Assembly (NCBI GenBank): GCA_045576055.1
Contig: JAZNFR010000187.1
Location: forward strand, 1-24,811
Direction of reading: 5' to 3'
Length of the DNA: 24,811 nucleotides
Source: Eubacteriales bacterium
Lineage (GTDB): Bacteria > Bacillota > Clostridia > Oscillospirales > CAG-272
Position 1 is the first letter of the stretch. Each line of letters starts with the position of its first letter. The notes under the pieces are model-generated. The model ran no database searches, had not been told where the DNA came from, and saw only the letters and a program-made list of their open reading frames with translations. Positions 9,027-21,309 of this stretch are shown here, in pieces. The translations under genes were made by a program, and so were the position numbers.

Positions 9027-9055
9027 ATTTTACTATAACATTGGTCACTAGTCAA
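9027..9055 (-). promoter_or_regulatory. sigmaA-type promoter for the MmcQ/YjbR gene
   Basis: Minus strand TTGACT (9055-9050), 17 bp, TAAAAT (9032-9027). Confidence 0.55.
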
Positions 9056-9091
9056 GAGAGATTAATTACCCTTGCGAGCAGAATCACCTTA

Positions 9092-9567
9092 GCCTCGTGT
9101 CCGAACCCCATTCGAAGCAATGCTTTGAAGAGGTGGTCGAGAGCTCTTCCTGCGCCACAAAAAAAGGACACCATTTTTGGTGTCCTTTGTGAAAATGCAA
9201 AAGAACACAAACGAGGGATACATTTTCTTATAAAAATGCACTTCGGCAAGCCTTATGCTAGCGAGCTGACAACGGCTTTTGCCTCGTGTCCGAACCCCAT
9301 TCAAAGCAAAGCTTTGAAGAGGTGGTCGAGAGCCCTTCCTGCGCCACAAAAAAAGGACACCATTTCTGGTGTCCTTTGTAAAAATGCAAAAGAACACAAA
9401 CGAGGGATGCATTTTCTTATAAAAATGCACTTCGGCAAGCCTTATGCTAGCGAGCTGACAACGGCTTTTGCCTCGTGTCCGAACCCCATTCAAAGCAAAG
9501 CTTTGAAGAGGTGGTCGAGAGCTTTTCCTGCGCCACAAAAAAAAGACACCATTTTTGGTGTCCTTTG
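9092..9567. repeat. 189-bp tandem repeat, about 2.5 copies, directly downstream of tRNA-Ser
   Basis: Units start at 9092, 9281 and 9470 (GCCTCGTGTCCGAACCCC...); units 1 and 2 differ at 6 of 189 positions by manual comparison; the third is truncated by the tRNA. Confidence 0.95.
9537..9566 (-). terminator. Intrinsic terminator of tRNA-Ser (repeated in each 189-bp unit)
   Basis: Minus strand GGACACC-AAAAAT-GGTGTCT followed by a T-tract (8 consecutive T) right after the CCA end. Confidence 0.85.
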
Positions 9568-9654
9568 TGGCGCAGGAAGAGGGATTCGAACCCCCGTGCC
9601 GTTAGGCAAACGGTTTTCAAGACCGCCTCGTTATGACCGCTTCGATATTCCTGC
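9568..9654 (-). tRNA. tRNA-Ser, anticodon TGA
   Basis: GCAGGAA TA TCGAAGCGGTCATAACGA G GCGGT CTTGAAA ACCGT TTGCCTAACGGCAC GGGGG TTCGAAT CCCTC TTCCTGC G CCA: 87 nt, 7-bp acceptor stem, class II variable arm, G73 discriminator, encoded CCA. Confidence 0.95.
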
Positions 9655-9700
9655 GTATTTAAATACACGGTTCTCTTTGCAAAATGTCTCGTGCTTAAGT

Positions 9701-9729
9701 ATAATATCACATTTTTTTTCGTCTGTCAA
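9701..9729 (-). promoter_or_regulatory. sigmaA-type promoter for tRNA-Ser
   Basis: Minus strand TTGACA (9729-9724), 17 bp, TATTAT (9706-9701) with TG motif. Confidence 0.75.
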
Positions 9730-9953
9730 TATTTTTTTGATTTTTCTTGAAAATATTTAAAATCCCTCGTTAATTGTTAATTTTTTGTTACGAAACTTAA
9801 AATTTATTCTTAACAAATTTCGATTTTTTTGTGCCGTTGAGCCCTTTTGCCATGGGGGTTTTGCCATTTTTCTTTCGACAAAAATCGTCTTTTTATTTTC
9901 GACTATATTCTTCCTTATTATATTATTTCTTACAAAATTAACATTTAAAACCA

Positions 9954-9982
9954 TTGACTTGATATAGAAAATATGTTAAAAT
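9954..9982 (+). promoter_or_regulatory. sigmaA-type promoter for the five-gene envelope operon
   Basis: TTGACT (9954-9959), 17 bp, TAAAAT (9977-9982) with an extended -10 TG; about 120-nt leader to ATG 10109. Confidence 0.7.
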
Positions 9983-10108
9983 GAAATCGCAAAATTGCTA
10001 TAGTGCTTGGCTTTGTCGACACTTTTGAGCAATATAAAGTAGCAATGCTATTAAAATTGCACACTCTAATTAGTGTGATAACAAAAAAATCAAAGTGAGA
10101 TTGGATTT

Positions 10109-11569
10109 ATGTATCAGTTAATCATTTTTTCTGCTGTGGCACTTTTATGTCTTCTTGCTTTCTTTGTTTTTAGAAAGCGCGAGTCGAAATTTGACGTTTT
10201 TTTGAAGATTATAACTGTTCTATTTTGTGTAATAGGTTTTGTTAGATTCTTCTTGCCAGATTCCTTTGCTTTCTTGTATAACGGAGCCGTAGTTGGTGTT
10301 GGAGATAATAAGCAGCAGGTTTTTGAGCACGACTATCTACAAACTATTTTAAGATGGGGTTATTTCTCTGCTTACTCTATTCTTCCTATGGCGGTATTTT
10401 ACAAGGGACGCTTCTTTAAGAATGTGGCTTCCTATTTCACCTTGCCATTCGCGGTAGCTTCAGCTATCTACTTCAACGATTTTATGAAGTATTTCTTCGA
10501 AGATGAGCGTATGGGAACCATCAATCTACATATGAATAACGGATTAAGATATGCATTCTTTATTTTAGAGCTTGTTTTGGCAATTTCAATTCCTATCCTA
10601 GTTCAAATAAAGGATAAGCACTATTTCAATGTAAAGAGCCCACGTGAGTGGATTAGATTTGTTGCAGGTCTTATCTGCATTATTCCAATCACCATGCCAA
10701 TATACTCGTTGCAATCCTTGGTTGGCTTCGACTCACTTCGTAGACCGCCAATGTTTGGCACCTTCCATTTCTTATGGATAGGCATTACAGTGGTTGCTAT
10801 TTTGGCACTTTACTTTATGTTCCGATTCAAAACATACGAAGAGCGTCTTATGCTTTGCATGTTCTTAACACTTGTATTGTTCTTCCATTATAATTCATTC
10901 TACTTGTCTGGAATTACAATCAAGCGCTTACCATTCCAGCTTTGTAACATTGCTTGCTATTTCTACCTCGTTGCGATGGTATTTAAATTCAAAAAGATGT
11001 TCCACTTCTGCTTCCTTGCAAATATCGTTGGTACTATAATTGCGATATTTGTATTCGACGTTTCAGCAGGCTGGACCTCACTTAACACTATTCACTATAC
11101 ACTTGAGCACTCACTTGTTCTTATTGTTCCTGCTTTAGTTATGGGACTTCGTATTTTCCCACGTGTAACGCTTAGAAGCTTTAAGTACTACTTTGTTGGA
11201 TTTACAGCATTTTTCCTATTCGTCTTTATTGTAGGTACTGTTTTAAATGGCTACTCCGATGTAACTAACGAAACAGTTAACTATTTCTACATATTTGACC
11301 GAAAGATGCTTTTTGGAGAAGGTGGTTTCGTAAGATTCCTTTCCTTCTTAGAGGACTGGGAAATAAAATTTGGAAGATTCGAGATTTATCCATTAATTGC
11401 TATAACCGTTTATGCTGGATTCTCTGCCCTTTCATTCTTATTCTATCTTTTTGTCAGATTTTTATACAGATTCGAGGACGACCATTTGGAGCTTCGTCGC
11501 TCGAGTATAGAATTATACGAAAAAATTTCTCATAGAAAATCAATCCGTCCTAAGGACTATATTGATTAA
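10109..11569 (+). CDS. YwaF/TMEM164-family polytopic membrane protein with a duplicated N-terminal half
   Basis: C-terminal half has YwaF-type motifs MFGTFH (215-220), RLPFQLCNIA (C279), HYTLEH (Y330, H334) and NYFYIF; very hydrophobic throughout. Confidence 0.75.
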   Translation: MYQLIIFSAVALLCLLAFFVFRKRESKFDVFLKIITVLFCVIGFVRFFLPDSFAFLYNGAVVGVGDNKQQVFEHDYLQTILRWGYFSAYSILPMAVFYKGRFFKNVASYFTLPFAVASAIYFNDFMKYFFEDERMGTINLHMNNGLRYAFFILELVLAISIPILVQIKDKHYFNVKSPREWIRFVAGLICIIPITMPIYSLQSLVGFDSLRRPPMFGTFHFLWIGITVVAILALYFMFRFKTYEERLMLCMFLTLVLFFHYNSFYLSGITIKRLPFQLCNIACYFYLVAMVFKFKKMFHFCFLANIVGTIIAIFVFDVSAGWTSLNTIHYTLEHSLVLIVPALVMGLRIFPRVTLRSFKYYFVGFTAFFLFVFIVGTVLNGYSDVTNETVNYFYIFDRKMLFGEGGFVRFLSFLEDWEIKFGRFEIYPLIAITVYAGFSALSFLFYLFVRFLYRFEDDHLELRRSSIELYEKISHRKSIRPKDYID

Positions 11570-11583
11570 TAAAGGAGACCGCT

Positions 11584-12333
11584 ATGTCAGATACAGAAAC
11601 AAAATATTTGCTTGAGATAAAAAATCTTACAAAGCACTATGGTGAATCTAAGGTTAATGCTGTTGAGGACCTTTCAATTTCCCTAAAGGAAGGCGAAATA
11701 TACGGTTTCTTAGGTCCAAATGGTGCAGGAAAAAGTACAACAATCAAAAGCCTTGTAGGAATTTATCCTTTCCAACAGGGTGATATTCTTGTTGATGGAA
11801 TTTCTATCAAAACAAACCCACTTGAGGCGAAAAGAAAAATAGGATACGTTTCTGATAACCACGCTGTTTTCGAGCGTCTTACTGGTTATGAATACGTAAA
11901 CCATATTGCTAATCTATATAAGGTTGATCCAGCCGACGCTGAGATGCGTACAAACCGTTTGCTCGATATATTCAAGCTTCGCGCAGCATTCCATCAACCT
12001 ATCAAGAGCTACTCACATGGTATGAAGCAAAAGATTTCAGTTATCGGTGCTCTTGTGCACAACCCTAAGCTTTGGGTTCTTGACGAACCACTTACAGGTC
12101 TTGACCCACAAAGCTCATATCAGCTTAAAAAGGTTATGAAGCAGCATGCAAGAGAGGGAAACACCGTTTTCTTCAGCTCACATATTCTTGACGTTGTTGA
12201 AAACCTCTGCAATCGTTGCTGCATCATAAAAAAAGGTAAGCTACAAGGCGTTTACAATATTGCCGAGCTTAAGGCGCGAGGCGAATCCCTTGAAGAAATA
12301 TTCGTAAGCGTTATTGGTGAGGAGGATAAATGA
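11584..12333 (+). CDS. ABC transporter ATP-binding protein (ABC-2/exporter type)
   Basis: Walker A GPNGAGKST, signature YSHGMKQK, Walker B LWVLDEP, H-loop FSSH; AAAGGAG RBS. Confidence 0.95.
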   Translation: MSDTETKYLLEIKNLTKHYGESKVNAVEDLSISLKEGEIYGFLGPNGAGKSTTIKSLVGIYPFQQGDILVDGISIKTNPLEAKRKIGYVSDNHAVFERLTGYEYVNHIANLYKVDPADAEMRTNRLLDIFKLRAAFHQPIKSYSHGMKQKISVIGALVHNPKLWVLDEPLTGLDPQSSYQLKKVMKQHAREGNTVFFSSHILDVVENLCNRCCIIKKGKLQGVYNIAELKARGESLEEIFVSVIGEEDK

Positions 12334-13958
12334 GAAACGTCCTCTTGCTTTTAAAGCTTCAGCTTGATAACCAAAGCGACCTTTTAAAAACCCTTAACCC
12401 TAAAAAGATGATTCCCGCTATACTCAAAACAGTTGCTTTGCTAGTTTTAGGCATTATAGCACTCAGCTTTGCAATATCGCAAGTAACGGGAATGCGAGTT
12501 TTGGTAACCCAAGAGCTTTTGGCAATTGTTCTTCTTGCAACACAAATTGTTTCACTTGTGTTTGCAACAGGAAACATAATTAACACGCTGTATATGAGCA
12601 ATGATAATGAAATGCTCTTCTGCTTGCCTGTTACGCCAAATCAGCTTTTCATCTCTAAGATTCTTAAAATTTACATAAACGAGGTTAAGGTCAACGCAAT
12701 GATTTCCATACCACTATTCTACGTGCTTGGTTCATATGCAAAGCCAACCTTCGCTTTCGGTTATTATCTATCAATAATTCCTTTACTTATAATTATGCCT
12801 ATTACACCTATCGTTTTAGGCGCAGTTATTAGTATACCAGCTATGATTATAATTAAGTTCTTGAAAAAGCATGCCGTTCTTTCGGTTGTTGTTGTTTTCT
12901 CCTTAATTGCTTCCTTGTTAACTGCATATATGTATGTTCTCGGTAAGCTTGCACCTATTTTCACCAACATTGACTTAATGGGTGCGCAGCAGTATGATTC
13001 GTTAAGAACCATCAATAATTTTATTAATAGCTTTGGTCCAAAGATTGGTTTCTATTACCAATTATCTGGTGCTATGCTTGACTTGCGTACTTATGGATAT
13101 GTATATCCTATATTTATTGCCGCTTGCATCGTTGTTGCTGCAGCTACAATATTCTTCACAAGATATTTCTTTTTCAAGGCTGCTATGTCAAACCTTGAAA
13201 AAACGGTTAAGAAGAAGCGTGAGCGCAAATACGACACCTTCAAAAAAAGAGGAGTTGTTGCTTCCCTTTTCTTGAAAGAATTTTACTGCGTATTCCGTTC
13301 TCCTTCTGACATATTTGAATATTTCTTATTCACAATTCTTATGCCATTCATCGTATTCTCTTGCGACAAGCTTTTAGTTGGCGTTGCAATAGATATGGGT
13401 GGTACAAATATGAAGCCTGGTGCCCACCTTATGGTACTTGCTATTTTAGCTATGCTATCTAACGTTTCATCAGCTTCAGCTATTTCACGTGACGGAGGAA
13501 ACTTCTATTCCTCTAAGATTATCCCTGTAAGCTTTTACTCACAAATGTTTGTAAAGTTTTTATTTAATGCGACCTTCACTTCTATAGCACTTATAATTAC
13601 TGCTATTACGTCGTTCTTCCTATTCCCTGCTTGGGAGGTAATTCTTGGTACTATTGCAGTAATGCTAGCAGCTGCTGGTCATATTGCATACTGCATTGAT
13701 AGTGATATAAAGAACCCTACCGTTGCAACTGAAGGTAACGACCAAGCCTCTATTGTTAGTAAAACCACACCAAAGAGCCTTGTTTATGGCTTTGCGGTAG
13801 GCTTTATTATGGGATTCTTCTTAATGCTTACAGCATCTCTAGAACTTTCTGTTTTGCCGTACATCATACTCATTGTCGCAGCACTTGTTTTCTTAATTTA
13901 TAGATTAAACAACCTAATATTAAGAATCAACCTCAAGTATGACAAGATAGAAATGTAA
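12330..13958 (+). CDS. ABC exporter-type permease, two-domain, about 12-14 TM
   Basis: Related motifs in each half: LYMSNDNEMLFCLPVTPNQLFISK and AISRDGGNFYSSKIIPVSFYSQMFVK; ATGA overlap with the ATPase gene. Confidence 0.85.
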   Translation: MRNVLLLLKLQLDNQSDLLKTLNPKKMIPAILKTVALLVLGIIALSFAISQVTGMRVLVTQELLAIVLLATQIVSLVFATGNIINTLYMSNDNEMLFCLPVTPNQLFISKILKIYINEVKVNAMISIPLFYVLGSYAKPTFAFGYYLSIIPLLIIMPITPIVLGAVISIPAMIIIKFLKKHAVLSVVVVFSLIASLLTAYMYVLGKLAPIFTNIDLMGAQQYDSLRTINNFINSFGPKIGFYYQLSGAMLDLRTYGYVYPIFIAACIVVAAATIFFTRYFFFKAAMSNLEKTVKKKRERKYDTFKKRGVVASLFLKEFYCVFRSPSDIFEYFLFTILMPFIVFSCDKLLVGVAIDMGGTNMKPGAHLMVLAILAMLSNVSSASAISRDGGNFYSSKIIPVSFYSQMFVKFLFNATFTSIALIITAITSFFLFPAWEVILGTIAVMLAAAGHIAYCIDSDIKNPTVATEGNDQASIVSKTTPKSLVYGFAVGFIMGFFLMLTASLELSVLPYIILIVAALVFLIYRLNNLILRINLKYDKIEM

Positions 13959-13973
13959 TTCAAAGGATTTAAT

Positions 13974-14924
13974 ATGAAAAAAGCTTTATTGATTATACTT
14001 TTACTTTTGCCTATTATTCTTGTTGTGGTAGTTGCCGTTGCAGGATACTTCGCTGCAGAGCTTGGTCCACGTACCCCTGTTGAGTCTATTGAATTTGTCG
14101 ACAAGCGTGGCAACCCTTATACATCCGAAATTGAATTCAAGGTAGAACAAAAGGGTAAGCCTAAACAGGTTTTCGTTCGTGTCCTACCAGAAGCGGCAAA
14201 TAATAAGGCATACACTCTTACCTCTAGCGACCCTGATATTTGCTCCGTTTACACGGTTGTTGAAGATGGTCTTGAAAAGATATACATACAAGGTAATCAC
14301 TGGGGAAATACAACAATCACTGCAAAAACAAAGGAAGACAATAAGATTGCAATTCTAAATGTAAGAGTTACCGCAGATAAGCCTTTCGAGGTTAAGCTTT
14401 CACACAAAGAGGTTGAATTGATTGAAAAGTCAACCTTCCAATTAAGCGCTGACGTTGATGCGCCTGTTGCTCTTGACAAAAACGTTATTTATACATCAAG
14501 CGATGATGGAATTGTTAAGGTTGATGCAAATGGTAAGCTGACAGCTGTTAAGGAAGGAACTGCCACAATCACCGCTACAACCGTTAGTGGTGGATTAACA
14601 GACACTTGCGTCGTAACTGTAGAGAAGGGTATATTACCTATATCACTTGACTTCTCCAATCTTGATGTTGAAGTTTTTGAAACTGGTTGCATCTCTAAGC
14701 TTGCTACCTTAAATCTTCGTGAATGCCTACGCGTTCGTGAGGATGTAAATGTAAATGACGTAAAGATTGTTATAAAATCAGGCTCTAGCGCAACTATTTC
14801 AGATGACGGAGTCTTAACTTTTACCGAGTTTAATAAGGTTATAACTCTCTACGCTTATGTCGGCGATATAAACACCCCAACTCATTCATATGAATTAAGA
14901 ATGATTTATAGACCTAATGTTTAA
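13974..14924 (+). CDS. N-terminally membrane-anchored or secreted protein with bacterial Ig-like (Big_2-type) domains
   Basis: MKK plus an about 24-residue hydrophobic stretch; Big_2-like TSSDPDICSV...GNTTITAKT and YTSSDDGIVKVDANGKLTAVKEGTATITATT...CVVTV; third beta-rich C-terminal segment. Confidence 0.8.
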   Translation: MKKALLIILLLLPIILVVVVAVAGYFAAELGPRTPVESIEFVDKRGNPYTSEIEFKVEQKGKPKQVFVRVLPEAANNKAYTLTSSDPDICSVYTVVEDGLEKIYIQGNHWGNTTITAKTKEDNKIAILNVRVTADKPFEVKLSHKEVELIEKSTFQLSADVDAPVALDKNVIYTSSDDGIVKVDANGKLTAVKEGTATITATTVSGGLTDTCVVTVEKGILPISLDFSNLDVEVFETGCISKLATLNLRECLRVREDVNVNDVKIVIKSGSSATISDDGVLTFTEFNKVITLYAYVGDINTPTHSYELRMIYRPNV

Positions 14925-14987
14925 TTTGAGCTTGTGTCCTTCGAGCTTATATTAATAAATTCATTTTAATAAAACAAGGAGAAAAAA

Positions 14988-17900
14988 ATGAAAAGCACAC
15001 TAAGAAAAATTTCAATTTTTCTACTCGTTTTGATGCTATCTACTTTTTGCTTGATTGCTTGTGGTGCAAATAACATCACAACAGACACATCAACAAACAG
15101 TAGCTCTGACACCGAAACAGACTCATCCACTGCCCCTATTTTCTACGGGCTCGACCTTCGCGCAGACAAGACTAGCGCTCTTCGTCAAGACAAGATTAAT
15201 CTTCAAGCCGTTCTCGTTTACGGCGAAACCGAAGAACCTCTTTTTGAAGACGTTGAATACTACATTGTAGAAGGCGAACAACATGCAACACTTGATGGCT
15301 ATGTTCTTACTATTAAGGGCACAGCAGCTCATAACGGCATCATCAAGGTTCAAGCACGTGAAGGCGCGACCATTTCAAATATTCTTGAAATTAAGGTTTC
15401 TGTTCCAGCAACCGACCTTACAATTAGCGCAAATGGTGTTACAAACATTTTAGCTGGTCAAAACCAAATTATCAAAGCAGAAATCACACCACAAGGTGCT
15501 GAAAACAATGTTGTTTACACCATTACTGAAGGTGCAGAATATGCTGCATTTGATTCCAATGTATTAGAAGTTTCAAGTACTGCTCCAACAGGCGCTACTA
15601 TTAAGGTTAAGGCTTCCATTGGTGAGCTTGAAAGTAATGAGCTTACATTTACTGTAGGTTATCCTCTTGAGTCAATCGTTGCAACACTTGCTCCAACTAA
15701 CATCTTAGCAGGTGGCAATGCTCCTATCTCTGTTACATTGACTCCTTCTAACTCTACAAACGCTAACTACACTTGGGAATTTGTTGAAGGTGGCGACTAC
15801 GCTACTATCGTAAACAACATAGTAACTGTTAACGCTGATGCTCCTACTGGTGCTATCGTTAAATTCAAGGCTGTTTGTGGCGATGTTGAAAGCGACGTTC
15901 TATCATTTATCGTTGGTTATCCAATGAAGGACATTGATGTAACATTTGCAGCAACAAATATCGTTGCAGGCTTCAATGCTCCTATTTCAGTTACAACAAC
16001 ACCAAGCAACACTACAAGCGTTTACACTTGGGAATTTATCGAGGGTGGCGAGTATGCTACTATTGTAAATGGTATGGTAACTGTTAATGCTAACGCTCCT
16101 ACAGGTACTGTTGTTAAATTCAAGGCTGTTTGTGGCGAAATTGAAAGTAATGTATTTACATTTACTGTAGGTTATCCTATTGAATCAATCAACGCAACAT
16201 TTACAAAGCCTAACATTGAAGCAGGCGATAGCGCTTCTATTTCAGTTTCAACAACACCAAGCAACACTACAAGCGTTTACACTTGGGAATTCATCGAGGG
16301 TGGCGAGTATGCTACTATCGAAAACAACATAGTAACTGTTAACGACAACGCTCCTACAGGTGCTGTTGTTAAATTCCGTGCTGTTTGTGGAAAGATTTCA
16401 AGTAAGACATTTACATTTATTGTAGGTTATCCTCTTGAAGCTCTCAAGGTTGCTTTCTCAGCAACTAACATTATTGCAGGTGAAAGCGCTCCTATCTCTG
16501 TTACATTAACACCATCAAATGCAACAAATGGCGATTACACTTGGGAATTCATCGAGGGTGGCGATTATGCTTCTGTTATAAACGGCATGGTAACTGTTAA
16601 TGCTAACGCTCCTACAGGTACTGTTGTTAAATTCAAGGCAGTAGCTGGAAACATTTCAAGCGATGAATTATCATTCACAGTTGGATATCCTCTCTCCTCT
16701 ATTATAGCTACACTTGTTGGCTCATCCGCTAATATGGAGCCTGGCACAACTGCTCAGCTTGCAGCAAAGCTCAACCCAACTAACACAACAAATGGTGAAT
16801 ACACTTGGGAAATTATAGAAGGTAACGATTTTGTTACTCTTACAACAGCAAATGATGCAACATTAATCACAATCAAGTCCGAAACTCCTATCGGTTCAGT
16901 TGTAAAGATTGTTGCTAAGTCTACTGACGGCATGATTACAAGTAATGTTCTCACTATCGAGGTTGGTACTCCTATTGAATCTGTTGTTCTTTCTACAGAT
17001 GCACCAGCTATACTCGACCGCGATGGTACATACGAATTTACAGTGGCAGTAACACCAAACAACGCAAGTATGAATGCTCTTTCATGGATTGTTGACGAGG
17101 GTGCACAATATGCAACCTTCAAAAACGGCGTTCTCCATATTGCAAAGAACACTCCTGCAGGCACAAAGGTAACTGTTCACGTTGAAAGTGGTGAGGTAAA
17201 GAGTGACTCATTCACATTTACTGTTGGTATTCCACTTAATACTATTACACTCACATTAAATGCTACTAATGTAAACCCAGGTAGCTCCTGTGTTATCAAC
17301 TATGCTCTTGACCCAGAAAACGCTTCTGACCAAGATGTTAAATGGATTATAGAAAAGGGTGGCGAATATGCTACACTTAAAAACGGAATCTTAGCTGTTA
17401 ACGCTGATGCACCTGTTGGTGCAAAGGTAACATTCTATGCTCAAGTAGTTGATGTAAAGAGTGAACCTATCACAATTACTGTTGGTATTCCTCTTGAAGA
17501 TATCAAGATTGAGCTTAATGGTAATAAGAATGTAAACCCTGGCGCTTCCGCTCAAATCATCACTGAGTTTTTCCCAACAACTGCTACTAACCAAACAATT
17601 ACTTGGAAGTTTGTTAGTGGAGAAGAATATGCAAGCATCAGTGGTAACTTCATCACTGTTAAGGAAGGCACTCCTGTTGGAACAAAGATTAAATTCTACG
17701 CACAAATTGGTGAAATTACAAGTGATCCTATAGAAATTATCGCAGGTACTCCTCTTGAATCTATCACCATTGAGCTTGGCGAAACAAATATCAATCCTGG
17801 CGCATCTGCTCAAATCACAACTACATTCAATCCAACCAACGCTACTAACCAAACAATTACTTGGGTAGTTTCTGATGGTAAGGATTATGTAAGCATCTCT

Positions 17901-20174
17901 TCTACTGGTCTTATTACAGTTAACAAGAATGCTCCTATTGGCGAAACAGTAACATTCTATGCTATGGGTGCTGTTAAGAGTAATTCACTTACATTTACAA
18001 TAGGTGTTCCTGTTGAAGAAATCGTTATTGATACAATTAACTCCTCATCTACTATTGTTAAAGGCAACTCAGCTGCTCTCCTATTTGAAATAGGTCCTTC
18101 TGACGCAACCCAAACTACTGTAACATGGGAAATCACAGAGGGTAAGGAATTTGCTGAAATCAAGGGTAATAACCTTGTTGTAAATGCAAATGCTACAACA
18201 GGCGCTACAATTAAGGTAGTTGCTAAGGCTGGCGGAATAACAAGTAATGAGCTTACATTCACAGTTGGCGCAACTCAAGAAGAAATAAATGCTGTTAAAT
18301 ACATGCTTTCATTGAATGCAAACAACCTAACAATCGACAAATATGGTATGAAATCACCTGTTTTGATTGCTGAAGTAACAAACGCTAACTTTGAGACTGT
18401 TCTTGATGTTTCTATTGCATATGAAGTAGTTTCAGGTGGTGAATTCATTTCAATCACTCCTGACGGATTTAACTTCAGCTTCTCAGCACAAGGTCACGGT
18501 CAAGCAGTTATCAAGGTTTGGGTTGCTGGATATGAAAACACTGCTGAAACAGTTACAATTGATTCAATTGTTCCTCCAACATCAGTAGAGCTTACAGGTC
18601 CATTTGCTGAAAATCCAAAGCACGAATATTCATTCTCACTAATTGACCCAATCACAAAGGCTGAGGAATCACTTCCATTCGACGTACTACTAAAGGGAAC
18701 TGGTTCATTCTGCCAAGACGTTTTATACACATTCACAGATGAAAACGGTGTTTCCGGCGATTCTGTTGCTGTATATGCAGACGGAAAAATCACATTTAAG
18801 AAGACCGGAAAGATCAATCTTGAGGTACAATCAAATTCAGGAAGCTACACAGAGGCTCGCGTTCGTTACACCTTTGACATTAACGAGGGCTATAACGTAG
18901 AAACCTTTGAAGAATTCAGCTATGTTGTTGAACACACTAGTCATAAGGGCACACCTATTAATTTAGTTGTTCTTGATAGAGTTAAGGACTATGCTGGTTA
19001 TGATTATGGTTACGCACTTGTTCCATCAATCGCACTTGAGAACGCTCCCGCTGATCAAGAGCTCGCTCATTTACTTCGTTCTTACACAACTTACAACGGC
19101 AAGAGCATCAACATAAGAATTCAAGCTGTAAACTCCAGCTTATATGTAAATGGTAACAACACTATAATTGATGCATCTAAGGTTAAGGTATTCAACAAGC
19201 AAGAATACGATGCTTATGTTGAAGAATATGCTATTCCTGAATCTGATAGATTCTACAACTACTCTGCATTCTTATCAGTTGAGGCATGGCACAAGGACGG
19301 AATAGGAACAACCGACCCGAACGTTATTGGTCAGGATTACTTCATCAAGCTTTACGATATTGAGGTTAAGGGTAATGCGCCAATAGACTATAATCCAGCT
19401 GACCATGGTTATCCAGGCACTTCTGATAACCAAGCCTTCGTAGGTGCGTTTGGTGAAGGTATCAATATGGGTAGTCTTGCCTATAGTTGCCACTACTCAA
19501 TTGACGTTGACAACTTGACTGCTTCCGCATTCCATAATGGCTTGAAGTTCTCATCAATCGTTGGTAATGGTAATGTTTCTAACCTACATGTATACAACTG
19601 TTATTCAACTGGTATTGTTGCACGTTCAAGTATGCTAACCTTTGAAAACCTCGAAATTGGTCCTTGCGGCGCTACTGGTATAGAGCTTTCACAAGATGAC
19701 TATAACAAGGCAGGTTATAACGATAACGAAATTGCAAAGATTATCTTCAAGGGTAATGTTGAAGCATTAACTAACCTTAACAATGGTGAAACAAACTACT
19801 TTAAGAATTACTCAATCATGGGTGCTTCCGTTCCTCAAATAATCACTGGTAACACCCAACAGTACTCAGATAACCAAGTTTCACACTTCAGAAACGCAAA
19901 TGGTGAATTCATCTTCATTTGTCTATTGTTCAACAACTTCCAAACATTTGAATCAAACGGCACAATTGTTGAATATTCTGCATTTGAAGAGGGTGGCGGT
20001 ATTATAAATGCTGCAAATCTTCCAACAAGTGGAATAGACTACGAGCATCAGTTCATTATGATGGATATCTACGTTGACATCGCAGCACTTGGAGGAACTA
20101 CCAAGGTTGGTTCTGCCCTATTCTATAACCACTATTATGGAAAGGCTCCAGCAGCAACTGAAGTAGCTGAATAA
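14988..20174 (+). CDS. 1728-aa surface lipoprotein: lipobox, Ser/Thr linker, about 14 Ig-like repeats, C-terminal probable parallel beta-helix domain
   Basis: Lipobox LIAC (C25); linker TTDTSTNSSSDTETDSST; repeats ending F/I-T-V-G-x-P; head from residue about 1302 (YNVETFEEF...YVNGNNTIIDAS...NLHVYNCYSTGIV...ENLEIGPCGATGIEL); AAGGAG RBS. Confidence 0.85.
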   Translation: MKSTLRKISIFLLVLMLSTFCLIACGANNITTDTSTNSSSDTETDSSTAPIFYGLDLRADKTSALRQDKINLQAVLVYGETEEPLFEDVEYYIVEGEQHATLDGYVLTIKGTAAHNGIIKVQAREGATISNILEIKVSVPATDLTISANGVTNILAGQNQIIKAEITPQGAENNVVYTITEGAEYAAFDSNVLEVSSTAPTGATIKVKASIGELESNELTFTVGYPLESIVATLAPTNILAGGNAPISVTLTPSNSTNANYTWEFVEGGDYATIVNNIVTVNADAPTGAIVKFKAVCGDVESDVLSFIVGYPMKDIDVTFAATNIVAGFNAPISVTTTPSNTTSVYTWEFIEGGEYATIVNGMVTVNANAPTGTVVKFKAVCGEIESNVFTFTVGYPIESINATFTKPNIEAGDSASISVSTTPSNTTSVYTWEFIEGGEYATIENNIVTVNDNAPTGAVVKFRAVCGKISSKTFTFIVGYPLEALKVAFSATNIIAGESAPISVTLTPSNATNGDYTWEFIEGGDYASVINGMVTVNANAPTGTVVKFKAVAGNISSDELSFTVGYPLSSIIATLVGSSANMEPGTTAQLAAKLNPTNTTNGEYTWEIIEGNDFVTLTTANDATLITIKSETPIGSVVKIVAKSTDGMITSNVLTIEVGTPIESVVLSTDAPAILDRDGTYEFTVAVTPNNASMNALSWIVDEGAQYATFKNGVLHIAKNTPAGTKVTVHVESGEVKSDSFTFTVGIPLNTITLTLNATNVNPGSSCVINYALDPENASDQDVKWIIEKGGEYATLKNGILAVNADAPVGAKVTFYAQVVDVKSEPITITVGIPLEDIKIELNGNKNVNPGASAQIITEFFPTTATNQTITWKFVSGEEYASISGNFITVKEGTPVGTKIKFYAQIGEITSDPIEIIAGTPLESITIELGETNINPGASAQITTTFNPTNATNQTITWVVSDGKDYVSISSTGLITVNKNAPIGETVTFYAMGAVKSNSLTFTIGVPVEEIVIDTINSSSTIVKGNSAALLFEIGPSDATQTTVTWEITEGKEFAEIKGNNLVVNANATTGATIKVVAKAGGITSNELTFTVGATQEEINAVKYMLSLNANNLTIDKYGMKSPVLIAEVTNANFETVLDVSIAYEVVSGGEFISITPDGFNFSFSAQGHGQAVIKVWVAGYENTAETVTIDSIVPPTSVELTGPFAENPKHEYSFSLIDPITKAEESLPFDVLLKGTGSFCQDVLYTFTDENGVSGDSVAVYADGKITFKKTGKINLEVQSNSGSYTEARVRYTFDINEGYNVETFEEFSYVVEHTSHKGTPINLVVLDRVKDYAGYDYGYALVPSIALENAPADQELAHLLRSYTTYNGKSINIRIQAVNSSLYVNGNNTIIDASKVKVFNKQEYDAYVEEYAIPESDRFYNYSAFLSVEAWHKDGIGTTDPNVIGQDYFIKLYDIEVKGNAPIDYNPADHGYPGTSDNQAFVGAFGEGINMGSLAYSCHYSIDVDNLTASAFHNGLKFSSIVGNGNVSNLHVYNCYSTGIVARSSMLTFENLEIGPCGATGIELSQDDYNKAGYNDNEIAKIIFKGNVEALTNLNNGETNYFKNYSIMGASVPQIITGNTQQYSDNQVSHFRNANGEFIFICLLFNNFQTFESNGTIVEYSAFEEGGGIINAANLPTSGIDYEHQFIMMDIYVDIAALGGTTKVGSALFYNHYYGKAPAATEVAE
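15138..18275 (+). repeat. 12 tandem about 85-94-aa Ig-like repeats inside the large lipoprotein (two more divergent units follow to about 18890)
   Basis: Recurrent pattern P-x-N-x-T...YTWE-x-x-EG-x-x-YA...V-x-x-NAP-x-G...S-x-x-L-T-F-T-V-G-x-P. Confidence 0.9.
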
Positions 20175-20202
20175 TTTCACTATTCAACTCTTAATAAAAT
20201 GT

Positions 20203-20246
20203 GGCACGCACCATTTTGGCGCGTGCCCTTTTATTTATACTTTTTT
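20203..20246 (+). terminator. Intrinsic terminator of the five-gene operon
   Basis: GGCACGCACCA-ttt-TGGCGCGTGCC hairpin followed by CTTTTATTT and TTTTTT. Confidence 0.75.
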
Positions 20247-20314: not shown

Positions 20315-20698
20315 ATGCTTGAAATAAACGTCAGATTTCAGGAGGAATATTTGCGTCTTGATGCTTTATGCCGTGAGTTCTTTTCCTCAAAGCGTGGTAT
20401 CAGCCTTTATATTGAGCATATGGAGGCAACCGAGCAAAGGGAATGGAAGAAAATCAGCGGTTGGGAAAGCGATTATAAGGCCTTAAGACATATGCGCCAT
20501 ATTAGGAACAAGCTAGCGCATGAGGTTGATGCCTTAAATAAGCGCCTGTGCAGTGAGCGTGAAATTTCTTGGATGAAGAATTTTTACAATAGAATAATGG
20601 ATGAAACAGACCCACTAACAAGGCTTTCAGATCTAAGAAACAGCTCTTTCTTCAAAAGACTTTGGCGTGGTATTAAAAGACTTTTCGGAGGCAAATGA
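20315..20698 (+). CDS. Small all-helical protein with a HEPN-type Rx4H motif (resembles DUF6548)
   Basis: FQEEYLRLDALC N-terminal helix, RHIRNKLAHE (R64-H69), basic amphipathic C-terminus. Confidence 0.65.
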   Translation: MLEINVRFQEEYLRLDALCREFFSSKRGISLYIEHMEATEQREWKKISGWESDYKALRHMRHIRNKLAHEVDALNKRLCSEREISWMKNFYNRIMDETDPLTRLSDLRNSSFFKRLWRGIKRLFGGK

Positions 20699-21309
20699 TG
20701 AAGGAAAACGAAAAGCTACACTCCGGCGATATTTATTATCCCAGTGGCGAGGAGATTATGAAGGAGCAGCTTGCCTGTCTTGACAAGCAATATGATTTTA
20801 ATTTAACACGCCCAACTGAGCTTGACAAACGCGAGAAAATGCTAAAGGAAATGTTTGCTGAGATTGGCAAGGGATGCTATATTGAGCCTCCTCTACACTC
20901 TAATTGGGGTGGCAACCATGTACACTTTGGCGATTTTGTTTATGCAAATTTTAATCTTACAATGGTTGACGACACGCATATTTATGTAGGGGACTACACC
21001 TTGATTGGTCCAAACGTCGTTTTGGCAACCGCAGGACACCCAATTTTGCCCGAGCTACGTGAAAAGGCGTATCAATTCAACATGCCTATTCACATCGGCA
21101 AAAACTGCTGGCTTGGTGCTGGTGTTATTGTCTTGCCTGGTGTTACAATCGGCGATAACTCTGTAATCGGTGCTGGCAGTGTTGTAACAAAGGATATTCC
21201 GTCTGGCGTTGTGGCAGTTGGAAACCCTTGCAAGGTTTTGCGTAAGATAAACGAGCACGACCGCGAATACTATTTTAAAGATAGAAAAATAGATTATAGT
21301 AAGCTATAA
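20695..21309 (+). CDS. Sugar O-acetyltransferase (Maa/LacA hexapeptide-repeat family)
   Basis: IEPPLHSNWG, NFNLTMVDD, IGPNVVLATAGHP, IGKNCWLGAGVIVLPGVTIGDNSVIGAGSVVTKDIP, GNPCKV; start is ATG 20695 or 20698. Confidence 0.92.
   Translation: MMKENEKLHSGDIYYPSGEEIMKEQLACLDKQYDFNLTRPTELDKREKMLKEMFAEIGKGCYIEPPLHSNWGGNHVHFGDFVYANFNLTMVDDTHIYVGDYTLIGPNVVLATAGHPILPELREKAYQFNMPIHIGKNCWLGAGVIVLPGVTIGDNSVIGAGSVVTKDIPSGVVAVGNPCKVLRKINEHDREYYFKDRKIDYSKL

Follow-up and report, generated by a model that had tools for sequence, protein, structure and literature searches.

A candidate envelope machine in gut Clostridia: five genes for a YwaF/TMEM164-type membrane protein, an ABC transporter, an Ig-like anchor and a beta-helix lipoprotein

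Contig JAZNFR010000187.1 of an uncultured Eubacteriales bacterium (assembly GCA_045576055.1) carries five co-directional genes with the following predicted products: a membrane protein related to YwaF and TMEM164, the ATPase and permease of an ATP-binding cassette (ABC) transporter, a membrane anchor with immunoglobulin (Ig)-like domains and a very large lipoprotein. Do these genes, here called g1 to g5, form one system, and if so, what might it do? The whole contig of 24.8 kb was analysed and is referred to as the window; it belongs to a gut metagenome-assembled genome of 1.58 Mb that is 71% complete. We provide evidence that the five genes are one dedicated envelope unit, and we propose, with a probability of roughly 0.5, that they encode an ATP-coupled machine which transfers acyl groups on the outer side of the membrane and has the lipoprotein as its partner or client. 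The five open reading frames (ORFs) are all on the plus strand, span 10109-20174 and are separated by 14, -4, 15 and 63 bp, respectively:

10109-11569, plus strand: g1, 486 amino acids (aa), double YwaF/TMEM164-type membrane protein; PF14808 over residues 215-398
11584-12333, plus strand: g2, 249 aa, ABC ATPase of the DrrA/ABC-2 partner type
12330-13958, plus strand: g3, 542 aa, PF16949 permease with about 12 transmembrane (TM) helices; its start overlaps the g2 stop by 4 bp
13974-14924, plus strand: g4, 316 aa, N-terminal TM helix and then three Ig-like domains (Big_2)
14988-20174, plus strand: g5, 1728 aa, lipoprotein with a lipobox, a Ser/Thr-rich linker, Ig-like repeats and a C-terminal beta-helix
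14988-15062, plus strand: g5 signal peptide and lipobox (L-I-A-C, Cys25)
15063-18857, plus strand: g5 stalk, a Ser/Thr-rich linker and then about 13-15 Ig-like (Big_2-type) repeats
18858-20174, plus strand: g5 head, a right-handed parallel beta-helix of about 430 aa (AlphaFold2 model)

Conservation and block gain or loss of the unit

One genome per species was scanned with an alignment of g1 orthologues, which yielded 79 loci, and the six-frame ORFs of these loci were compared by BLAST with the five window proteins. A locus was considered informative if it came from another species, had a g1 relative of at least 33% identity and extended at least 3.6 kb downstream (62 loci pass the identity threshold and 56 pass both). 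In 52 of the 56 informative loci g1 is followed by g2, g3, g4 and g5 with order and strand kept. One cassette locus (L050) ends before g5, and six short loci contain the expected genes up to the contig end. The hosts include many uncultured Clostridia of the animal gut, and some of the genomes are labelled Bacilli or Acholeplasma-like.

A sixth conserved gene was sought among 55 cassette loci: because no flanking family is common to more than six of them, the unit can be delimited to exactly five genes in changing contexts (the genes that flank it in the window recur only in the lineage of a single congener, G016). The search was also reversed: the most distant relatives of the g5 beta-helix that were looked up (P0384 and P0385) are again found behind genes for a TMEM164-type protein, an ABC ATPase, a PF16949/12-TM permease and an anchor. 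The conserved order, the missing sixth gene and this reciprocal search together rule out a chance gene neighbourhood.

Closely related genomes show how the unit comes and goes. Among the 24 congeners sampled, the cassette was found in G016 only. In G015, a close relative (its ADP-ribosylglycohydrolase is 83% identical), the order is ADP-ribosylglycohydrolase, a small ORF, tRNA-Ser and then, after 380 bp, DUF6548, with no cassette in between, whereas the window and G016 contain a 10-kb block between tRNA-Ser and DUF6548. Sharp junctions or att-like repeats were sought at this site, but the AT-rich intergenic DNA is too diverged to define any. Overall, these genome comparisons support the view that the five genes are one dedicated envelope unit that is gained or lost as a block. 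A first-pass annotation of this DNA had taken them for such a unit and had suggested scoring its conservation across genomes; the synteny in the informative loci and the presence/absence pattern bear this out. The same annotation had raised a fusion of g4 and g5 in other genomes, which was seen in none of the 52 complete loci.

Candidate transcription signals lie on either side of the unit. The following features border the unit:

9568-9654, minus strand: tRNA-Ser(UGA), left landmark of the presence/absence site, outside the module
9954-9982, plus strand: promoter-like site (TTGACT, 17 nt, TAAAAT, extended TG), a sigma-70-like consensus match alone
20203-20227, plus strand: intrinsic terminator hairpin (-17.7 kcal/mol), then a T-rich tract, CTTTTATTTATACTTTTTT

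The promoter-like site agrees with the consensus at 10 of 12 positions; as 44 such sites were found in the region against 38 expected in shuffled sequence, they are about equally frequent in both and the site counts as a consensus match only. A Shine-Dalgarno-like motif precedes each of the five genes, though it is weak for g1. Within 10109-20174 a scan for internal terminators, defined as hairpins that fold at -9 kcal/mol or below and lead into a U-tract, revealed none. The gene positions and spacing, the single promoter-like site, the interior without a strong terminator and the terminator at 20203 are thus as the first-pass annotation had described them. In read archives, the cluster and g2 were looked up for RNA runs and none was listed; parts of the sequence are contained in two DNA runs of gut metagenomes only.

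Some observations concern the surroundings of the site. Downstream of tRNA-Ser(UGA), on the minus strand at 9163-9566, three terminator-like hairpins (AAAGGACACC...GGTGTCCTTT and a T-run) are arranged as a tandem array with a spacing of 189 bp; an ORF call that spans this array (9041-9760) is probably spurious. Just beyond the 5' end of tRNA-Ser, G015 and G016 have an element of about 120 nt in common (L082 7780-7920 and L083 5140-5290; ...GAATTCGCTTCGTATGTC.AACGAAAGCCGTTGTCTGCTTGCAAGCAAAAGGCTCGTTG...), which is missing from the window and for which ARAGORN makes no tRNA call. On the other side, outside the cassette, the window contains DUF6548 (127 aa) and a Mac/hexapeptide acetyltransferase with a 4-bp overlap (20315-21309); the pair is also present in G016 and, judged by position, in G015. 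In the G016 lineage a gene for a glycoside hydrolase of family 2 (L001 18821-20533) lies between the g5 orthologue (1289 aa) and DUF6548, and the window lacks it.

The five proteins and a fused sister family

The first protein, g1, matches PF14808 (TMEM164) with 56.5 bits (cut-off 25, E 3.5e-15). Its C-terminal half is a complete YwaF unit with H220, C279 (in LPFQLCN) and H334 (in TLEH), and its N-terminal 214 residues gave no family match. The three residues are invariant in 25 orthologues, and also in an alignment of six split and 20 fused proteins (the fused form is described below). A Cys/His dyad has been defined for human TMEM164 (C123/H181) and the ATGY superfamily (bioRxiv 10.1101/2022.07.06.498872); in g1 the nucleophile Cys and the His are on separate TM helices, matching the TMEM164 dyad. 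Hydropathy, positive-inside loops and the constraint set by the fusion place H220, C279 and H334 at outer helix ends. Given that the fused form attaches its nucleotide-binding domain (NBD) at this point, the C-terminus of g1 should be cytoplasmic, and we infer that the dyad faces the outer membrane leaflet. Where the g1 paralogue is more distant (below 33% identity), the remaining cassette genes are missing from the locus, with L077 as the sole exception. These distant paralogues include a subfamily of double YwaF proteins about 30% identical to g1 (L069, also L061-L076), without ABC or lipoprotein genes; in L069 (9219-11437) the paralogue directly follows a single-domain YwaF gene, near ribosomal protein L9 and ProS.

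Of the five genes, g2 is the best conserved (59-93% identity to its orthologues). It matches ABC_tran in Pfam and is closest to drrA/GldA-type models (best NCBIfam match drrA, 201 bits, below the cut-off). Its neighbour g3 matches PF16949 (ABC_tran_2) with 28.7 bits (cut-off 25.7), and the AlphaFold2 model (predicted local distance difference test, pLDDT, 78.9) has about 12 helices, short loops and an internal pseudo-dimer. The second half of this model aligns with type V permeases at VIA Z scores of 15.0 (NosY), 14.8 (ABCH), 14.3 (ABCG2), 13.1 (CcmB) and 11.7 (PmtCD), and the alignment with ABCA4 extends across the two halves (Z 14.7, 384 residues). The top 14 VIA matches are all type V transmembrane domains (Z 11.7-15.0), against a Z of about 8 or less for unrelated folds, and in Foldseek the top matches are CcmB (rank 1) and NosY. 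Hence g3 models as a type V (ABC-2; ABCA/ABCG/NosY-like) permease paired with a DrrA-like NBD. As this is the fold of lipid-handling type V permeases, it counts in favour of an ATP-coupled lipid machine. The next protein, g4, has a Big_2 match in Pfam and a constant length among its orthologues (301-321 aa), and M1, K2, K3, L9, L12 and P13, in the region of its TM helix, are invariant in 37 orthologues.

Variation is much larger in g5: across species the whole protein ranges from 745 to 2089 aa and its stalk from about 4 to about 18 domains. A lipobox was recognised by pattern in 50 of 55 orthologues, and for the other five the script had picked a wrong (upstream or internal) start. The head is always at the C-terminus and is modelled as a right-handed parallel beta-helix (AlphaFold2 pLDDT 90.7). 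It has neither a Pfam match nor a sequence match in the PDB, and Foldseek yields weak PDB matches (E about 0.01), so that the fold is evident only with VIA-align. There it aligns at Z 13-17 with alginate epimerases, lyases, tailspike depolymerases, pectinases, the L. reuteri SRRP adhesin, NosD and VexL, without a clear preference for any one of these families. A profile of 36 head domains run against 1.84 billion representatives retrieved only 196 clusters. The conserved positions are mostly structural Gly and Asn. Among the polar ones (domain numbering) E276 is 97% identical and always Asp or Glu, Y314 is invariant and Y427 is 97% identical; D105 and H397 are less conserved. Taken together, the proteins are largely what the first-pass annotation had made of them: family match and intact dyad suggest a TMEM164/YwaF-type enzyme for g1, Pfam hits and fold matches identify g2 and g3 as an exporter-type (type V/ABC-2) ABC system, one N-terminal TM helix and Big_2 domains make g4 a single-pass Ig anchor, and lipobox, Big_2 repeats and the AlphaFold2/VIA matches make g5 a lipoprotein whose Ig stalk ends in a beta-helix head.

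The strongest indication of how these proteins may work together comes from a sister family. In P0391 (757 aa, L085) a double YwaF module is joined to an ABC NBD in one polypeptide: the protein is collinear with g1 (residues 4-487 against 3-481, E 4e-26) and its C-terminal part is 52% identical to g2 (E 2e-87). Searching with P0391 retrieved 2720 proteins at E <= 0.001. We sampled the best 120 of the 2720 matches to this one query; all of them contain both PF14808 and PF00005, most are about 700-830 aa long, and their source names are only 'YwaF family protein' or 'ABC-2 type ATP-binding protein'. In the window g1 and g2 are separate ORFs 14 bp apart, and they are likewise separate in all 52 complete loci of the split type. 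The split point falls within the linker of P0391, to which the conserved cytoplasmic tail of g1 (around D457) corresponds.

The four fused contexts inspected (L085, L087, L088 and L089) have the same order: fusion gene, 12-TM permease, single-pass protein of 138-158 aa and lipoprotein, often preceded by a small polytopic protein. The adjacent permeases are of the PF16949/PF09847 type and the anchors share the MxKK-TM start of g4, with which one of them, similar in position and topology, gives a weak profile match (E 4e-4, 34% probability, 115 columns). The lipoproteins (700 to more than 1260 aa) also have a lipobox. Flg_new repeats are present in three of the four and a weak Pfam beta-helix (Beta_helix, Pectate_lyase_5) in two of those three; two of the four have no beta-helix hit, and the profile similarity between the g5 head and a fused-cassette lipoprotein is marginal. 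In one genome a split cassette is directly followed by a fused one (L085 1226-19792). In place of a single g5, that split cassette has one ORF for a Big_2 lipoprotein (734 aa) and another, starting with GTG, for a beta-helix protein (825 aa), which could reflect a real split or a frameshift.

In a quick maximum-likelihood tree of NBDs the sampled fused ones form one clade apart from the split ones (Shimodaira-Hasegawa-like approximate likelihood ratio test, SH-aLRT, 100), and split and fused NBDs together are set apart from generic ABC NBDs (96); one event, either fusion or fission, would account for this. With P0391 as query, the fused form was sought in 41 genomes of the window's own order, and NBD-length matches only were returned. 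About 15 further genomes of that order, together with G030:C12:5868-6581 and G040:C21:6146-6835, contain stand-alone ABC ATPases that are 39-48% identical to the cassette NBD. These matches (E 1e-59 to 1e-68) are well clear of generic ABC hits, and the genomes in question lack g1; the ATPases may represent a related ABC-2 system without a YwaF module.

As far as can be judged from sequence, the window cluster is the split-gene form of a broader unnamed cassette class. The first-pass annotation knew no named system of this composition; the literature that we searched likewise contains no description of such a bacterial system, but the composition is not unique, given the larger family in which g1 and g2 are fused. 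That fusion also has a bearing on mechanism: it implies that g1 is probably a part of the transporter that contacts the ATPase directly, and less likely an independent enzyme acting before it. Taken jointly, split and fused forms provide a natural fusion-based argument for an interaction between g1 and g2, and the split form is convenient for dissecting the coupling, as the enzyme and ATPase genes can be expressed separately.

The proposed machine and its alternatives

Combining these elements, we favour an ATP-coupled envelope machine. In this machine a type V (ABC-2-like) transporter would be built from two g2 ATPases and the pseudo-dimeric 12-TM protein g3, with g1 as an integral partner whose Cys279/His334 acyl-transfer site would open to the outer leaflet; g4 would dock on the permease through its conserved TM helix, and g5, with its Ig stalk and beta-helix head, would be the extracytoplasmic partner. 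ATP hydrolysis by g2 would drive g3 to flip or present a lipid (acyl donor or acceptor), and the Cys of g1 would take the acyl group as a thioester and hand it on at the outer face. One step further, the likeliest acceptor may be g5 itself, at its lipid-anchored N-terminus, or else a lipid or glycolipid on which g5 depends. The nearest precedent in function is LhaT/YpjA, a member of the ATGY superfamily that N-acetylates diacyl-lipoproteins outside the cell with acetyl-heptaprenylglycerol as donor; the flippase for this lipid-borne acetyl donor was left unidentified (PMC12345273). Because every cassette, split or fused, carries its own lipoprotein, even where two are adjacent (L085), we rank the lipoprotein anchor (or the lipid needed) as acceptor slightly above a product that acts at a distance. 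The features that are invariant across both cassette forms are the lipobox and the beta-helix, which makes a lipoprotein client as plausible as a processing enzyme.

Several observations weigh against the proposed machine. Three loci (L023, L058 and L060) have a g1-like gene alone, with the rest of the cassette missing. The score of g1 against TIGR02206 (49.5 bits) is below the cut-off of 75, which makes g1 a divergent YwaF relative that belongs to the Pfam family but not to the narrower NCBIfam subfamily. The first-pass annotation had suggested modelling the permease, ATPase and anchor together; a complex prediction was made for g3 and g4 only and places residues 1-30 of g4 against g3 helices with an ipSAE of 0.53 (best control 0.00), which lends the docking of g4 weak support: in the calibration of the prediction tool the 0.53 mark was reached by 58 of 80 solved complexes and by two of 110 mismatched pairs, and scores of 0.60 or less comprise only seven solved complexes in addition to both mismatches that passed. 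Furthermore, general lipoprotein acylation needs no dedicated client, and an invariant beta-helix points to an activity of its own that is of importance, which a client model leaves unexplained.

This last point leads to the model of the first-pass annotation, in which the product itself is the point: g1 would acylate or remodel a free lipid or lipid-linked glycan, the ABC transporter would export it, and the g5 head would bind or process this product or another polysaccharide away from the membrane. We consider this possible, though doubtful. Type V permeases typically move lipids or lipid-linked polymers, the beta-helix is kept in both cassette forms and has a fold shared by polysaccharide lyases, epimerases and depolymerases (among them, from polymer-export systems, VexL and the alginate epimerases), and the glycoside hydrolase gene after g5 in the G016 lineage would fit as well. 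Nonetheless, the g5 head shares only the fold with polysaccharide lyases and GH28-type (glycoside hydrolase family 28) enzymes: it shows no recognisable lyase or hydrolase motif and no Pfam match to such a family, and its conserved positions are mostly structural; processing at a distance from the membrane finds no support so far. Moreover, a stalk of about 4 to about 18 domains sets no fixed working distance, and no conserved glycosyltransferase, polymerase or lipid-synthesis gene lies beside the cassette in the 55 loci.

A second alternative, which we regard as unlikely, is a mechanotransducing platform comparable to NosDFY(L), CcmABCD-E or FtsEX, where ATP hydrolysis moves g4 and g5 and thereby loads, releases or activates the beta-helix protein, with g1 mainly as scaffold. 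The two permeases that g3 resembles in this respect, NosY (Z 15.0) and CcmB (Foldseek rank 1, Z 13.1), are both parts of ABC machines whose partners are non-ABC membrane proteins and whose periplasmic clients are anchored; NosD, too, is a beta-helix protein (Z 13.6 against the g5 head), and tethering of g1 to the NBD in the fused family would suit a scaffold. The Cys/His dyad of g1, however, is invariant over a wide divergence, which favours catalysis over scaffolding, the NosD match is no better than that of generic beta-helices, and the g5 head is located at the end of a variable-length stalk, away from the permease. Finally, self-protection or efflux, in which an ABC-2 exporter and a surface lipoprotein expel or sequester an antimicrobial peptide or lipid-active toxin (as in LanFEG/LanI) while g1 repairs or remodels damaged lipid, appears highly improbable, and membership in lantibiotic-immunity systems was dropped: g2 does match lantibiotic-protection and phenol-soluble modulin (PSM)-export ATPase models (below cut-offs), PmtCD is among the g3 structural matches (Z 11.7) and the patchy distribution among relatives resembles that of accessory genes, but the ATPase hits reflect generic ABC-2 similarity, conserved bacteriocin, regulator or two-component genes are missing nearby, and a beta-helix lipoprotein of 750-2100 aa bears little resemblance to LanI proteins, which are small.

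Returning to the acyl-transfer machine, its most specific version remains quite doubtful, yet is worth spelling out: a dedicated, ATP-powered remodelling of one lipoprotein's acyl anchor in Firmicutes, where the type V ABC transporter would either bring a lipid-borne acyl donor to the outer leaflet or pull out the client, and an ATGY-family Cys/His enzyme would acylate the N-terminus of a giant beta-helix lipoprotein. If true, the cassette would be the counterpart in function of Lnt-LolCDE, assembled from unrelated components, bacterial YwaF proteins would have their first function (the literature that we searched contains no experimentally characterised one for bacterial YwaF/TMEM164 proteins) and a way of energising acyl transfer at the outer face would be revealed. 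In any case, the genomic link of YwaF/TMEM164 to an ABC transporter and a lipoprotein, together with the fusion in the sister family, provides a concrete hypothesis: an acyltransferase coupled to an ABC motor could solve the problem of acyl supply at the outer face, which also arises for LhaT and its lipid-borne donor. The surface beta-helix lipoprotein may also matter for interactions with the host or with glycans.

Comparison with known systems

NosDFY(L) (PDB 7o0y, 7znq), an ABC-2 machine for the maturation of nitrous oxide reductase, has several parts in common with the window: NosY is the best g3 match, and there is a DrrA-like ATPase, a beta-helix partner (NosD) and a lipoprotein (NosL). 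However, NosY is a 6-TM homodimer whereas g3 is a fused 12-TM protein, and NosD docks directly on NosY and belongs to NosD/CASH (PF05048) whereas the g5 head belongs to no Pfam family and is carried at the end of a long stalk. The Nos system has no acyltransferase, and the window has no nosZ or copper genes. Membership was therefore rejected (no Pfam hit for the g5 head, a NosD Z score not above generic beta-helices, no nos genes in the window), and the relation is one of analogy.

CcmABCD(E) (PDB 7f02, 8ce1), which serves the maturation of cytochrome c, is similar in that polytopic CcmC (a non-ABC protein) and single-pass CcmD join the NBD dimer of an ABC-2 complex and the membrane-anchored client CcmE is covalently loaded and then released; CcmB, moreover, is the Foldseek top match for g3. 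It differs in its haem chemistry, in CcmC, to which g1 is not homologous, and in having no beta-helix.

Lnt and LolCDE, with which diderms first N-acylate lipoproteins and then extract them by an ABC system, resemble the proposed machine in logic: a Cys-thioester acyltransferase that acts on the outer side of the inner membrane is combined with an ABC system and with a lipoprotein as client. Yet Lnt is a nitrilase-fold enzyme and the proteins are unrelated to those of the window. LolCE are type VII permeases, a type with 4 TM helices and a large periplasmic domain, whereas g3 has about 12 TM helices and only short loops. Membership of the LolCDE/MacB type VII group was rejected, with Z scores for g3 of only 6.6 to LolE and 6.8 to MacB and no large periplasmic domain, and no evidence was found for lipoprotein trafficking away from the membrane in the cassette hosts.

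As for the putative acyltransferase itself, g1 differs from TMEM164, YwaF and LhaT, members of the ATGY superfamily of membrane acyl transferases and hydrolases, in being a tandem double unit of about 480 aa, in its N-terminal half without a family match and in its link to an ABC transporter; LhaT belongs to a different branch (DUF1405) and has no known link to an ABC system.

The closest relative is the fused cassette, which has the same parts in the same order: the His/Cys/His residues, an ABC-2-type NBD (52% identical), a 12-TM permease, a single-pass protein with an MxKK-TM start that may correspond to g4, and a beta-helix lipoprotein. Apart from the split of g1 and g2, several features differ. 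The window anchor has three Ig-like domains (316 aa) against one domain in the fused cassette (138-158 aa), the stalk consists of Big_2 instead of Flg_new repeats, and the window beta-helix forms a small family of its own (the 196 clusters), with marginal profile similarity to a fused-cassette lipoprotein. Relative to the fused cassette, the window adds the split variant, the distinct beta-helix family and the block insertion or deletion at tRNA-Ser, within a class that may be described as accessorised type V ABC envelope machines.

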